Positions 6,263 to 33,519 of a stretch of 38,534 nucleotides of DNA are shown here, one piece after another. Positions within the stretch are counted from its first letter, which is position 1, and every line of letters begins with the position of its first letter. Location of the stretch: positions 1,352 through 39,885 of the forward strand of contig JAPLWL010000074.1 in the NCBI GenBank assembly GCA_026396635.1. Direction: 5' to 3'. The stretch is from Candidatus Komeilibacteria bacterium. GTDB taxonomy: Bacteria; Patescibacteriota; Patescibacteriia; UBA1558; JAPLWL01. The notes under the pieces were generated by a model. The model saw nothing but the letters and a program-made list of their open reading frames with translations, was not told the origin of the DNA and searched no databases. The position numbers were made by a program, and so were the translations under genes.

Positions 6263-6380
6263 TGGTCATTCCTGCGCCGCGCCCGCCAAAGCTACGCTTG
6301 GCGTTGCGGGCGGGAAAGCAGGAATCTAGAAAAATGATTTTATGCACAAGACTGGATTCCCGCCTACGCGGGAATGACCA
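6263..6380. repeat. MITE-like GC-rich palindromic element, copy 1
   Basis: Perfect 10-bp terminal inverted repeats (tggtcattcc ... ggaatgacca) enclose nested hairpins (attcctgc/gcaggaat and cgcccgc/gcgggcg). A second copy lies at 30497-30603. Confidence 0.7.
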
Positions 6381-30496: not shown

Positions 30497-30603
30497 TAGT
30501 CATTCCTGCGCCACGCCCGCCAAAGCTACGCTTGGCGTTGCGGGCGGGTAGGCAGGAATCCAGCATTTATTTTTCTAGATTCCCGCTTTCGCGGGAATGA
30601 CCA
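30497..30603. repeat. MITE-like GC-rich palindromic element, copy 2
   Basis: tagtcattcctgcgccacgcccgccaaagctacgcttggcgttgcgggcggg ... gcgggaatgacca is a near-identical core to 6263-6380. Confidence 0.7.
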
Positions 30604-30622
30604 TGTGGTTTATAAAAAGCAG

Positions 30623-30656
30623 AAAGCCTGGCGTGTTGACGTCAGGCTTTTATAGT
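30623..30656 (+). terminator. Intrinsic terminator
   Basis: The stem aaagcctg-gcgt/acgt-caggcttt is followed by tat. Confidence 0.5.
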
Positions 30657-30744
30657 TTATTTAATTTTGGTTTTTCTTAGATCGGACGAAGTTATTTTTT
30701 ATGGCTAATGTTAGCTAAATAATTGATTTTTTGATTAAAATCTA

Positions 30745-30773
30745 TTGACAGTATTTATTAAGTATGATATAAT
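30745..30773 (+). promoter_or_regulatory. Perfect consensus sigma-70 promoter TTGACA-17-TATAAT upstream of the DGR target gene
   Basis: Both hexamers match the consensus exactly and the spacer is 17 nt. The implied leader is about 195 nt. Confidence 0.65.
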
Positions 30774-30812
30774 ATAAAAGTTAATGAGTTCTTTGAAAAT
30801 ACTTGCGAGGAT

Positions 30813-30860
30813 GGTCATAGCCAGAAGCTCTTAAGTTATTAAGGTTTTCTGGCTATGACC
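30813..30860 (+). promoter_or_regulatory. 14-bp perfect hairpin in the DGR target leader
   Basis: ggtcatagccagaa pairs with ttctggctatgacc. The loop contains an inner cttaa/ttaag pairing. Confidence 0.55.
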
Positions 30861-30974
30861 ACAATGTGTTGGTCTTATGGCTCCTGCCTCGGATAGAGGA
30901 AAGTTTGCCGTATCTTGCGGCTACCAGCCTATTAGGTTGGGAAGAATCTCGGCTACCAGCCGAAAGGAAACAAA

Positions 30975-31595
30975 ATGTCCAAGTATGGTCACAGACCTAT
31001 TAACTGGTTTGAAGCAATCGTGAACAAAATCGGCGGCGAAGAAGCTGCCGAGAAGTTCCTTCGTGGTGAGTTGGCGATTGCCGAACCGACTCGCTCGTGG
31101 CGCGAACAAGACGGTATAATCTACTTTACCGTCATATCAGATGGAAAGACGGGTCCTGAGTGGATTACCTACCTTGAAGGTAAGGGTTTCCAGCTCAGCA
31201 AGTATGCCAAAAGCCTGCTGAACTCCCCAGACTTCAAACCGACTAATGGTGTTATCATCGAAGTCGGCGTGCTCAAAGGCATGCTGTTTAATGACAGCGA
31301 CCGGACTACCAAGAACATCCGTTCTGACGCTGAGGCACGGAAATTCATCAAGCCCAACGCTGAGTTGGCCTGTCTGATCCGTGACAAATTCACGGATGAA
31401 GACATTGAAGCCATGGGGCTTACCTGGATCATCACCATGCACGAGCCGATCGTCGATTCTGATGGTGATTTGGGCCTGCTCGGTGTTGACCGTCGTGGCG
31501 GTGGTCGTGGGTTGTTCGCCAGCTACGATAGGCCTGGCTATCAGTGGTACCGTAGCAGCGGGTTTGCGTTCGTTCTCTCGCAAGTATCTCAATAA
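30975..31595 (+). CDS. DGR target (variable) protein, 206 aa, no signal peptide
   Basis: The C-terminal ~43 codons form the VR. AGGAAA lies upstream of the ATG, and a terminator follows at 31659-31697. Confidence 0.85.
   Translation: MSKYGHRPINWFEAIVNKIGGEEAAEKFLRGELAIAEPTRSWREQDGIIYFTVISDGKTGPEWITYLEGKGFQLSKYAKSLLNSPDFKPTNGVIIEVGVLKGMLFNDSDRTTKNIRSDAEARKFIKPNAELACLIRDKFTDEDIEAMGLTWIITMHEPIVDSDGDLGLLGVDRRGGGRGLFASYDRPGYQWYRSSGFAFVLSQVSQ
31453..31583 (+). repeat. DGR variable region (VR)
   Basis: An ungapped 131-nt alignment to 31925-32055 shows 23 mismatches, all at adenines in the TR. Confidence 0.92.
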
Positions 31596-31607
31596 GTTCT
31601 TTGAACT

Positions 31608-31639
31608 TAAGATTTTAGATCTCCTGATCTTGAATCTTA
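31608..31639 (+). promoter_or_regulatory. Hairpin 25 nt downstream of the VR (candidate DGR target-recognition stem-loop)
   Basis: taagatt-tt-agatc / tcct / gatct-tg-aatctta gives 12 bp with a 2x2 internal loop and a 4-nt apical loop. Confidence 0.35.
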
Positions 31640-31658
31640 GTCCTTTGGATTTTCATTC

Positions 31659-31697
31659 AAGAGCCCTGTACGCGTGTATGGGGCTCTTAATTTTTTA
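31659..31697 (+). terminator. Intrinsic terminator of the DGR target gene
   Basis: An 8-bp stem aagagccc/gggctctt is followed by aatttttt. Confidence 0.65.
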
Positions 31698-31924
31698 TGA
31701 TAAAATAGTATTGGTATTAGGCTAATACGCAAACGATTAAGGTTATTTGCCGCCGAATCCAGGATTCATGAATTGAGGGTATCCGCGGCCATGGCTTCGG
31801 ATAGGGTAATTTATGAAAACTAAAAAAAGAAGATACTTGGTGCGGAATGCTAAGGCATTGAGATGCCGGATAAAATTCAACCTAAAGAGTATTCAATAGG
31901 CGGTGGTAAAAGGTGGCATGCCGT

Positions 31925-32055
31925 ACAATTCTGATGGTAATTTGAACCTGCTCAATGTTGACCGTAATGACAATGGTCGTAGGTTGAACGCCAACTACGA
32001 TAAGCCTGACAATCAGTGGAACCGTAACAACGGGTTTGCGTTCGTTCTATCGCAA
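31925..32055 (+). repeat. DGR template repeat (TR)
   Basis: The invariant, A-rich cognate of the VR. It contains 38 adenines, and 23 of them are substituted in the VR. Confidence 0.92.
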
Positions 32056-32105
32056 CTCTCTTCATTTTCTCTCTCGGCTATTTGTCGGGAGAGTTTTGTT
32101 GTGGC

Positions 32106-32531
32106 CTACGAAGCCTTCCCGGCCTTCGTAGCCAAGGCTATTTCGGCGGAGTAGGCGGTGGAATAGGCTTTTATCAGTTGGCCATTCCAACCACCCAGCA
32201 TTTTCCCTATCTCATCTAATTGAACGGATAAAGCCAGGTATTTTTTATCCGGCAAGGATTTAGTTTCCCAAAGAATCATCAGGAATATTTTGGTGGTATC
32301 AATCTTTTGAATAGCCCGCCGGACATAGGGCAGTTTTTCCGCTTTTTGCAAAAAGGCAGCTGTGGCAATTGCTTCAATAGTTTCAGTCAGTAAATTATCA
32401 ATTTTTTGACCCAAGGAATATCGTTGGGTTTTTGATAATATTTGATGATATTCGTGCCACAGCAAGTAAGCGGTTTTTACTTTTTGTAGTACTGGCAGAA
32501 AACCGCGGGGGGGGGGTAGAATTAGACACAT
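32106..32531 (-). CDS. avd: Avd-like four-helix-bundle accessory protein (23S rRNA intervening-sequence protein family)
   Basis: A 141-aa helical protein. The pattern LPVLQKVKTAYLLWHEY...RYSLGQKIDNLLTETIEAIATAAF fits the four-helix-bundle family that accompanies DGR RTs. Confidence 0.7.
   Translation of the reverse strand: MCLILPPPRGFLPVLQKVKTAYLLWHEYHQILSKTQRYSLGQKIDNLLTETIEAIATAAFLQKAEKLPYVRRAIQKIDTTKIFLMILWETKSLPDKKYLALSVQLDEIGKMLGGWNGQLIKAYSTAYSAEIALATKAGKAS
32507..32516. repeat. G10 (C10 on the avd strand) homopolymer
   Basis: Ten consecutive G, counted by hand. The tract covers codons 6-9 of avd and ends 14 nt upstream of the RT ATG. Confidence 0.9.
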
Positions 32532-33519
32532 GAAAAAGATTAGCTTCAGTCATGGTTATGATTATATCATTTCTTTGGAAAATTTACTTCAAGCTTGGCA
32601 AGAATTTATCAAAGGCAAGCGAGGCCGAAAAGATACCCAAGAATTTGAACTGGATTTGATGGCTAATATTATTACTTTAAATGATGAGCTAGTTAATTTT
32701 ATTTATCAACACTCCGGCTACCAAGCTTTTAATATTTCTGATCCCAAGCCCAGAAACATCCACAAAGCCAGTGTACGTGATAGATTACTGCACCATGCCA
32801 TTTACCGGCAATTATATCCGTTTTTTGATAAAACATTCATTGTAGATTCTTTTTCCTGCCGGAATAACAAAGGCACTCATAAAGCCATTAATCGGTTCAG
32901 GAGTATGGCTTATCAAGTAAGTAAGAATAACACCAAGACGGTTTGGGTTTTAAAATGTGACATCAAAAAGTTTTTTGCCAATATAGACCATAATATTTTA
33001 AAAAATATTCTAGTCAGCTATATTCCTGACCAGCAGATTATCTGGCTTTTAAACAGGGTAATAGACAGTTTTGAAACAATGCCCGACAAGGGTTTACCGC
33101 TGGGTAACTTAACTTCTCAATTATTGGTAAATATTTACATGAATGAGTTTGATCAATTTGTAAAACATCAGTTAAAACAAAAATATTATATCAGATACGC
33201 CGATGATTTTGTGTTTTTGTCTGAAAACAAAGAAAGCTTGATAAATATTATCAAGCTAATTAAAGATTTTTTAGGTCAAAAACTTCAATTACAAATCCAT
33301 CCTAATAAAATATCGTTAACTACATTGGCTTCAGGCGTTGATTATTTGGGCTATGTAAATTTTCCGCATCACCGAGTATTAAGAACCAAAACCAAACGTA
33401 GAATGTTAAGGTTGGTTAATAACAAAAATTTACCATCATATCTTGGTGTTTTAAAACACGCTAATTGTTATGGGCTGGAGCAAGAGGCGTTGAATAGAGC
33501 GGGCCTCAGTAATTATTAA
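32530..33519 (+). CDS. DGR-type reverse transcriptase
   Basis: RT motifs present are VLKCDIKKFF, LPLGNLTSQLLVNIYMNEFD (the GxxxSQ signature of DGR RTs), YIRYADDFVFL and GVDYLGY. Confidence 0.9.
   Translation: MKKISFSHGYDYIISLENLLQAWQEFIKGKRGRKDTQEFELDLMANIITLNDELVNFIYQHSGYQAFNISDPKPRNIHKASVRDRLLHHAIYRQLYPFFDKTFIVDSFSCRNNKGTHKAINRFRSMAYQVSKNNTKTVWVLKCDIKKFFANIDHNILKNILVSYIPDQQIIWLLNRVIDSFETMPDKGLPLGNLTSQLLVNIYMNEFDQFVKHQLKQKYYIRYADDFVFLSENKESLINIIKLIKDFLGQKLQLQIHPNKISLTTLASGVDYLGYVNFPHHRVLRTKTKRRMLRLVNNKNLPSYLGVLKHANCYGLEQEALNRAGLSNY

Follow-up and report, generated by a model that had tools for sequence, protein, structure and literature searches.

The question raised by this locus is whether a small unannotated gene, an altered second copy of its 3' end, an inverted gene and a reverse transcriptase (RT) gene together make up a diversity-generating retroelement (DGR), of what kind, and what it diversifies. 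The stretch of DNA analysed, called the window throughout, comprises 38,534 nucleotides of a Candidatus Komeilibacteria genome (contig JAPLWL010000074.1 of assembly GCA_026396635.1, positions 1,352 to 39,885), and the locus lies at positions 30745-33519 within it. We regard the locus, with a probability of roughly 0.93, as an intact chromosomal DGR of the type found in the candidate phyla radiation (CPR). Its gene order is the one known as B3, in which a target gene ending in a variable region (VR) is followed by a template region (TR), an inverted avd gene and the RT gene. The core parts are as follows.

30975..31595, plus strand: DGR target gene, 206 aa, of a family restricted to Patescibacteria and without annotation
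31453..31583, plus strand: VR, codons 160-203 of the 206-aa target, with the 3' part GGGTTTGCGTTCGTTCTCTCGCAA
31925..32055, plus strand: TR, with 38 adenines, mostly in AAY codons
32106..32531, minus strand: avd accessory gene, 141 aa (NF033474 1.3e-15; PF22296 5e-9; phrog_3206 1.8e-11)
32530..33519, plus strand: DGR reverse transcriptase, 329 aa (LGNLTSQ and YADD; RVT_1 1e-28; phrog_1423 9e-102)

Template and variable regions

The two repeats carry the mark of adenine-specific transfer from TR to VR. They are 131 nt each, lie 472 nt apart and align without gaps, and wherever they differ, 23 times in all, the TR has an adenine (16 A>G, 5 A>T and 2 A>C). Fifteen of the 38 TR adenines are kept in the VR, the 93 positions that are not adenine are identical throughout, and homology ends on both sides at a non-A mismatch (31452 and 31584). 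With adenine making up 29% of the TR, the chance that 23 of 23 mismatches would fall on it is P = 4.3e-13. When the alignment was recomputed, every number that a first-pass annotation of this DNA had given for it was reproduced, with 0/93 non-adenine mismatches, and its peptide readings of both repeats were correct. A repeat search finds the same pair independently, and neither a second VR nor a further TR copy is present in the window. We rejected the TR as a chance repeat, and likewise an 83-aa open reading frame (ORF) spanning it (31903-32154) as a real gene.

The VR sits at the 3' end of a protein-coding gene, and its changes are placed to alter the protein: 10 are at first codon positions, 12 at second and one at a third, so that 22 of the 23 are at positions 1 or 2, and 18 of the 24 adenine-bearing codons (residues 160-203) are altered. 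The segment GGGTTTGCGTTCGTTCTCTCGCAA at the VR 3' end is nearly free of adenine, and the adenine-poor segment shared by both repeats ends at 31583 and 32055. This segment putatively plays the part of the initiation of mutagenic homing (IMH) sequence, with an IMH-like 3' boundary.

The same signature recurs across the target family, for which we fetched 80 loci for comparison. A TR lies about 330 nt downstream of the target in about 46 of them, and 739 of the 851 TR/VR mismatches in these 46 loci are at TR adenines, and most of the others fall where an alignment was extended too far at its end. Of these loci, 33 hold every part, arranged and oriented as in the window: target, TR, minus-strand avd and plus-strand RT. 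Two more relatives of the RT, on one contig, have the same layout, and one of these cassettes is inserted between the genes for ribosomal proteins S10 and L3. Some genomes hold two complete cassettes, as on one 119-kb contig (L081 and L082), and other loci (L022, L047, L062 and L080) have tandem leader-target-TR modules or an adjacent, diverged target paralogue (40-44% identity). Several of the metagenome-assembled genomes (MAGs) that bear the cassette are titled Gammaproteobacteria, Bdellovibrionales or Pacearchaeota; cassette and neighbours look like Patescibacteria, and we regard these titles as mislabelled.

Reverse transcriptase and Avd

The RT carries the GxxxSQ motif (as LGNLTSQ) and YADD, both already pointed out in the first-pass annotation. 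Its best relative in the Protein Data Bank (PDB) is the Bordetella DGR RT, bRT (8ub7, E 6e-41), followed by group II-type and other RTs from 3e-20. This lead of about 20 orders of magnitude over the group II-type enzymes bears out the earlier description of the RT as DGR-type, and similarity, profile scores and the GxxxSQ motif support its placement in the DGR lineage. Its closest named relative is from Komeilibacteria (77%), and all relatives with credible names are Patescibacteria MAGs.

The gene between TR and RT is recognised as Avd by three libraries (NCBIfam DivGenRetAVD, Pfam bAvd and the PHROG "Avd protein of DGR"). An Avd-type gene had been proposed here without mention that it lies on the opposite, minus strand: it points towards the TR RNA and away from the RT gene, with its ATG overlapping the RT ATG head to head by 2 nt. 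The NCBIfam model begins to align at residue 12 of the ORF, which leaves the real start of avd in doubt. Nine consecutive G at 32508-32516, 14 nt upstream of the RT start, read C9 on the avd strand and encode PPP near the Avd N-terminus; they could give rise to frameshifts or phase variation in avd, or be a weak point of the assembly. At the other end of the gene, a GC-rich, hairpin-forming insert of about 55 nt (32107-32170) that separates the TR 3' hairpin from the conserved avd end lengthens the C-terminus of the ORF relative to most relatives, and L014 has an insert at the same spot, too.

How the RT is expressed may be answered in two ways. Transcripts that start at the TR RNA promoter may run on through the antisense avd gene into the RT gene; alternatively, the divergent overlapping 5' ends of avd and RT may have promoters embedded in each other's coding sequence, and candidate minus-strand avd promoters do lie inside the 5' part of the RT gene.

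RNA and DNA elements around the repeats

The elements below lie between the VR and the end of avd.

31608..31639, plus strand: inverted repeat 3' of the VR, core AGATC-TCCT-GATCT at 31617-31630, 4-nt loop, -13.5 kcal/mol
31659..31697, plus strand: intrinsic terminator of the target gene, 13-bp stem then T tract, kept in related loci
31698..31706, plus strand: extended -10-like box TGATAAAAT before the TR RNA, with a TATAAT-like box kept here in related loci
31713..31924, plus strand: structured 5' domain of the TR RNA, 11 helices, about 215 nt, from RNAalifold and covariation
32069..32103, plus strand: hairpin CTCTCTC...GGGAGAG then UUUUGUUGUG, directly after the TR, terminator-like with a U tract

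The box TGATAAAAT is a candidate promoter for the TR RNA, judging by its sequence and its conservation. What follows it is a large, strongly conserved structured domain. In an alignment of 45 loci, its 69 base pairs are 95.6% paired and 45 of them show compensatory changes; none of 500 shuffled alignments reached the real values on any of five measures, and sliding the partners by 1-3 columns left at most 48% paired. Lineage-specific hairpin insertions fall in its predicted loops, and GC-rich hairpins of this kind were seen in L009, L020, L008, L014, L041 and L042. A 12-bp long-range helix (31839-31850 with 31915-31926) ends exactly at the TR 5' edge, where TR/VR homology begins. In the window copy none of the RNA helices is broken. 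The domain has no match in Rfam 15 even at E<=10; at the gathering threshold the whole window gives 4 tRNAs only, and a search of 30600-32600 at E<=10 gave only chance matches of the miRNA and snoRNA type.

Structured RNA lies on the 3' side of the TR as well. A conserved CTCTCTTCATTT directly follows the repeat and leads into the hairpin and U tract, whose stems show compensatory changes in L036, L046 and L060. An Avd-binding stem-loop just downstream of the TR has been described for 207 of 278 Avd-containing DGRs, with CPR among the listed taxa (Handa et al., bioRxiv 10.1101/2023.10.23.563531), and by analogy the hairpin here may be its counterpart.

The inverted repeat downstream of the VR lies 13-25 nt past the VR end. 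Its position is kept in related loci, where the stems differ in sequence but remain complementary, and it follows the VR only, not the TR. An inverted repeat downstream of the IMH has been described for DGRs (PMC5758913), and this hairpin appears to correspond to it, as a putative target-recognition repeat.

The target gene has regulatory elements of its own.

30745..30773, plus strand: target promoter, TTGACA-17-TATAAT, 12/12 match, with TG extension
30781..30974, plus strand: structured 5' leader of the target mRNA, about 194 nt, with covariation across 46 loci

The first-pass annotation had proposed a consensus promoter and a structured leader, and both hold. The promoter sequence (TTGACAAA...TATAAT) is kept at the same place in related loci. 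The leader contains a 20-bp interrupted hairpin at 30812-30861, a CCTC/GAGG hairpin at 30887-30899 and the hairpin GGCT-ACC-AGCC twice (30919-30929 and 30951-30961), the second copy standing just 5' of the Shine-Dalgarno sequence (30963-30969). Across the 46 aligned loci, its 34 base pairs are kept at 89.7%, with compensatory changes in 24 of them; none of 500 shuffles reached the real values, and slid partners were at most 48% paired. The leader has no Rfam match. Its 5' end GUUCUUUGA (UUCUUU) can pair with the Shine-Dalgarno sequence, a pairing for which there is little covariation. The first bases of the leader, AATGAGTTCTTTGAA (30783-30797), recur at 14 of 15 positions at 31591-31605 (AATAAGTTCTTTGAA), across and just past the target stop codon; it is the leader copy for which pairing with the Shine-Dalgarno sequence is predicted, and a weaker GTTCT is found at both spots in related loci. 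The leader also precedes family members that have no DGR, and so it is a part of the target gene rather than of the DGR.

Upstream of the whole element lies a GC-rich palindrome of about 62 nt (30499-30560). A copy with 95% identity at 6265-6326 marks it as a short dispersed repeat, similar to repetitive extragenic palindromic sequences or miniature inverted-repeat transposable elements. The GC-rich insert at the avd end is a different sequence.

Target protein

The protein that is diversified belongs to a large family. A word-indexed search found homologs in more than 1,100 clusters at 90% identity, and the family comprises 2,508 representatives at 50% identity, nearly all of 170-260 aa and stand-alone. 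It spans 259 species-representative genomes, which are Patescibacteria wherever the name is credible. The target has no match in Pfam, NCBIfam, PADLOC, PHROGs or the PDB sequences, the last searched with a family profile. Base composition changes sharply within the cassette: G+C is 51.5% in the target gene and 58% in the VR, compared with 42% in the window and 33% in the RT gene.

An AlphaFold2 (AF2) model built with 64 homologs is of a single domain and confident, with a predicted local distance difference test score (pLDDT) of 90.4 and a predicted template-modelling score (pTM) of 0.78. From residue 91 the modelled order is strand, helix, helix and four strands, the last three of them inside the VR, an order compatible with C-type-lectin topology. 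The top Foldseek lists against PDB and BFVD consist largely of C-type-lectin-like proteins, all of them non-significant matches. The structural check proposed in the first-pass annotation thus yielded a confident model and lists rich in such proteins and failed to give a significant match, and we take the modelled fold as a weak hint of a C-type lectin. Residues 85-206 (122 residues) modelled alone fail to fold (pLDDT 45.5), which suggests that the first 85 residues belong to this fold as well.

Within the C-terminal part, the columns with the highest entropy across 120 homologs are those whose codons bear TR adenines, and invariant scaffold residues (L168, R173, W191, G196, F197 and F199) stand between the variable ones. 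We see the target most probably as a soluble protein that binds through a variable face. Outside the VR, E44, E130, C133 and H156 (the last in an MHEP motif) are invariant in 64 diverse family members; such a set of Glu, Cys and His residues could form a metal or catalytic site.

Where this protein acts, and on what, we infer from indirect signs. A hydropathy scan confirmed the earlier statement that it has no signal peptide or transmembrane segment: signal peptide, lipobox, transmembrane and hydrophobic segments are all absent, and the maximum Kyte-Doolittle mean over 19 residues is 0.97. We put the chance that it stays in the cytoplasm at about even, favouring this over display at the cell solely because export signals and linked secretion genes are absent. 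The alternative, which concerns function only, is that the variable protein is displayed or released without a signal peptide and serves to attach the CPR cell, an episymbiont, to its host. One survey places the action of most cellular DGR targets at the cell surface (PMC8144416), a life on host cells is presumed for CPR bacteria, and CPR/DPANN DGRs of clade 5F, which is not the clade 2 assigned here, may mediate host-cell interactions (PMC10907252). Set against this are the missing signal peptide, lipobox and transmembrane segment and the lack of any linked secretion or pilus gene in the 80 loci, and display seems to us rather unlikely.

The neighbourhood gives no further direction. Across 81 loci, no gene beyond the DGR parts is conserved next to the cassette, which therefore stands on its own and offers no clue to a partner; one large "cluster" of neighbours was rejected as spurious, being an antisense ORF of the target.

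Activity and loss of the retroelement

Close family members elsewhere are diversifying actively. In two sets of close relatives (P0068/P0120/P0045 and P0047/P0092), there are 0 differences in 159-162 N-terminal residues and 13-15 in the 49 residues of the VR part, which is direct evidence, at the level of the family, for ongoing diversification. Between the window protein and its two closest relatives, 8-9% of N-terminal positions differ, against about 40% in the VR.

Loss of the element is common in the same family. Twenty-four of the 80 loci, each with at least 2.5 kb downstream of the target, have no TR, and about a third of family loci are without a DGR. Fragments of the TR RNA domain are kept in six DGR-less loci, some with shorter flanks (L003, L013, L039, L050, L063 and L077), and in three others (L008, L038 and L057) the TR is kept with no avd or RT within 5 kb. 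The target protein is thus retained after its diversifier decays. This raises the possibility that the window copy is itself a fossil, with a VR that was diversified formerly and is now frozen beside a dead element. The loci that lack TR, avd and RT, together with those holding TR RNA fragments or the TR alone, show that decay is frequent enough in the family to make such a history conceivable. In the window copy, however, the three ORFs are intact, the catalytic motifs are present and every RNA helix is preserved, and the absence of any difference at the 93 non-adenine positions of TR and VR means that there has been no drift since the last homing event. These features argue for recent or current function, and we consider a fossil improbable.

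Four results weigh against our interpretation of the locus as an intact element of this type or limit it. A scan of metagenomes with the TR pattern (A -> N) for VR or TR variants of the window element gave 0 matches. The Avd scores, while significant, are under the curated cut-offs (57.5 against 80 bits for NF033474 and 37 against 40 bits for PF22296). No sigma-70-like promoter for the RT was found on the plus strand within avd, so that transcription of the RT may depend on polymerase passing the hairpin 3' of the TR, and this hairpin would then terminate only in part. Finally, as to a C-type-lectin fold, Foldseek searches of the target model against PDB and BFVD returned nothing significant (best E 0.04-0.08, TM-score at most 0.3).

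Other assignments of the reverse transcriptase and the repeat

The RT might instead derive from a group II intron, a retron or a defence system (defence-associated reverse transcriptases, DRT, or the UG group). The top NCBIfam model is group_II_RT_mat (TIGR04416), PADLOC lists DRT models, and the public records of relatives go by the names "group II intron reverse transcriptase", "retron-type reverse transcriptase" or "reverse transcriptase/maturase". These labels dissolve on inspection of the scores: the RT reaches 140 bits where TIGR04416 has its cut-off at 300, and 63.8 bits where the retron model NF038233 has its cut-off at 235, and it falls far under every curated cut-off of the NCBIfam group II, retron and DRT models. 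Rfam gave no match to a group II intron or retron RNA family, whether intron RNA domains or msr/msd RNA. With bRT the best match by 20 orders of magnitude, the GxxxSQ motif present, and Avd and TR adjoining the RT gene in 33 loci, a source outside the DGR lineage is very improbable indeed.

The weakest alternative, that the TR is a randomly diverged pseudogene copy of the target 3' end beside an unrelated RT, can point to the TR lying inside an 83-aa ORF but is refuted by the mismatch spectrum (P = 4e-13), by the same bias in 46 independent loci and by TR flanks that are conserved structured RNA and not coding sequence, and we give it virtually no credence.

Relation to known systems

With the DGR assignment retained, the order of TR (31925-32055, plus), avd (32106-32531, minus) and RT (32530-33519, plus) is the B3 core. 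B3, defined as TR-(avd)-RT with avd reversed, accounts for 90% of CPR DGRs and is nearly absent elsewhere, according to Wu et al. 2018 (PMC5758913). CPR DGRs form clade 2, and their targets are typically without transmembrane or other known domains, as had been reported before (Roux et al. 2021, PMC8144416). The gene order thus places the element in a known and already surveyed class, and the architecture that the first-pass annotation had singled out as a point of interest was already published as B3 (PMC5758913). With the CPR B3 DGRs the window element shares the inverted avd between TR and RT, the Patescibacteria host, a small target without a transmembrane or known domain and the C-terminal VR, and we see no essential difference from them. 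Several of the related loci, L024, L025, L044, L047, L052 and L067 for example, come from groundwater MAG sets that these surveys also used. The 215-nt TR 5' domain, the target leader and the many DGR-less copies are not described in the main text of either survey (PMC5758913 and PMC8144416), and in this respect the locus goes beyond it.

The best-studied comparison is the DGR of Bordetella phage BPP-1 (mtd-avd-TR-brt; ribonucleoprotein (RNP) structure 8ub7). The two elements share adenine-specific transfer, a homologous RT (E 6e-41) with GxxxSQ, an Avd protein, an adenine-poor repeat 3' end, an inverted repeat that follows the VR and a stem-loop directly 3' of the TR. They differ in layout. 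In BPP-1, avd is on the same strand upstream of the TR, and avd, TR and brt form one transcription unit, whereas avd in the window is inverted. The BPP-1 RNA scaffold consists of the avd 3' end and a spacer of about 140 nt downstream of the TR; the large scaffold of the window element precedes the TR instead, and only about 50 nt separate the TR from the convergent avd. The BPP-1 stop duplex pairs sequence upstream of the TR with sequence downstream of it, whereas the window helix at the TR 5' edge is formed entirely by upstream sequence. Their targets differ too, one being a phage tail fibre and the other a soluble 206-aa protein.

With variable proteins of the C-type-lectin fold (Mtd, TvpA and the nanoarchaeal protein that figures in PMC5758913), the target shares C-terminal variable residues interleaved with an invariant scaffold. 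It differs from them in showing no significant structural match (E values of at least 0.04, TM-scores of at most 0.3) and no sequence match to a solved structure.

Proposed mechanism

In the course of events that we infer, an RNA of about 390 nt would be transcribed from the -10 box near 31698, comprising the 215-nt structured 5' domain, the 131-nt TR and the 3' hairpin with its U tract. RT and Avd would bind this RNA, as judged from the Bordetella system (PMC6182149 and the Handa preprint). Again by comparison with Bordetella, priming may occur at the adenine-poor 3' end of the TR, with copying toward the 5' end and misincorporation opposite adenines. cDNA synthesis would probably stop at the 12-bp helix that abuts the TR 5' edge. 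The cDNA would then replace the VR, with the adenine-poor 3' segment and the hairpin that follows the VR as guides, and recoding could reach up to 24 codons in the C-terminal 44 residues of the target. The target, expressed from its own strong promoter under a conserved structured leader, would use its variable face on a changing ligand.

The RNA features suggest a more specific proposal, which we hold tentatively and at somewhat less than even odds. The TR would be part of a discrete, structured non-coding RNA of about 390 nt, with a protein-binding 5' scaffold of 215 nt and 11 helices and a stop helix made of upstream sequence only, in an RNP organised unlike that of Bordetella. Separately, the leader of about 190 nt, which may sequester the Shine-Dalgarno sequence and which outlasts the DGR, would point to riboswitch-like or protein-mediated control of a cytoplasmic variable receptor.

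Significance

As a DGR, the element is nothing new in kind, since CPR DGRs with the same gene order and small domain-less targets were surveyed between 2017 and 2021. The TR RNA 5' domain, the target leader and the DGR-less copies raise its interest somewhat and leave its category unchanged. Its value lies in being a clean, complete reference copy for a CPR target family that seems to be very large. The RNA structures give concrete boundaries for the in vitro reconstitution of a CPR DGR, and the leader offers a handle on when the variable protein is made. The copies without a DGR, for their part, allow frozen forms of the protein to be compared with diversifying ones as they occur in nature.

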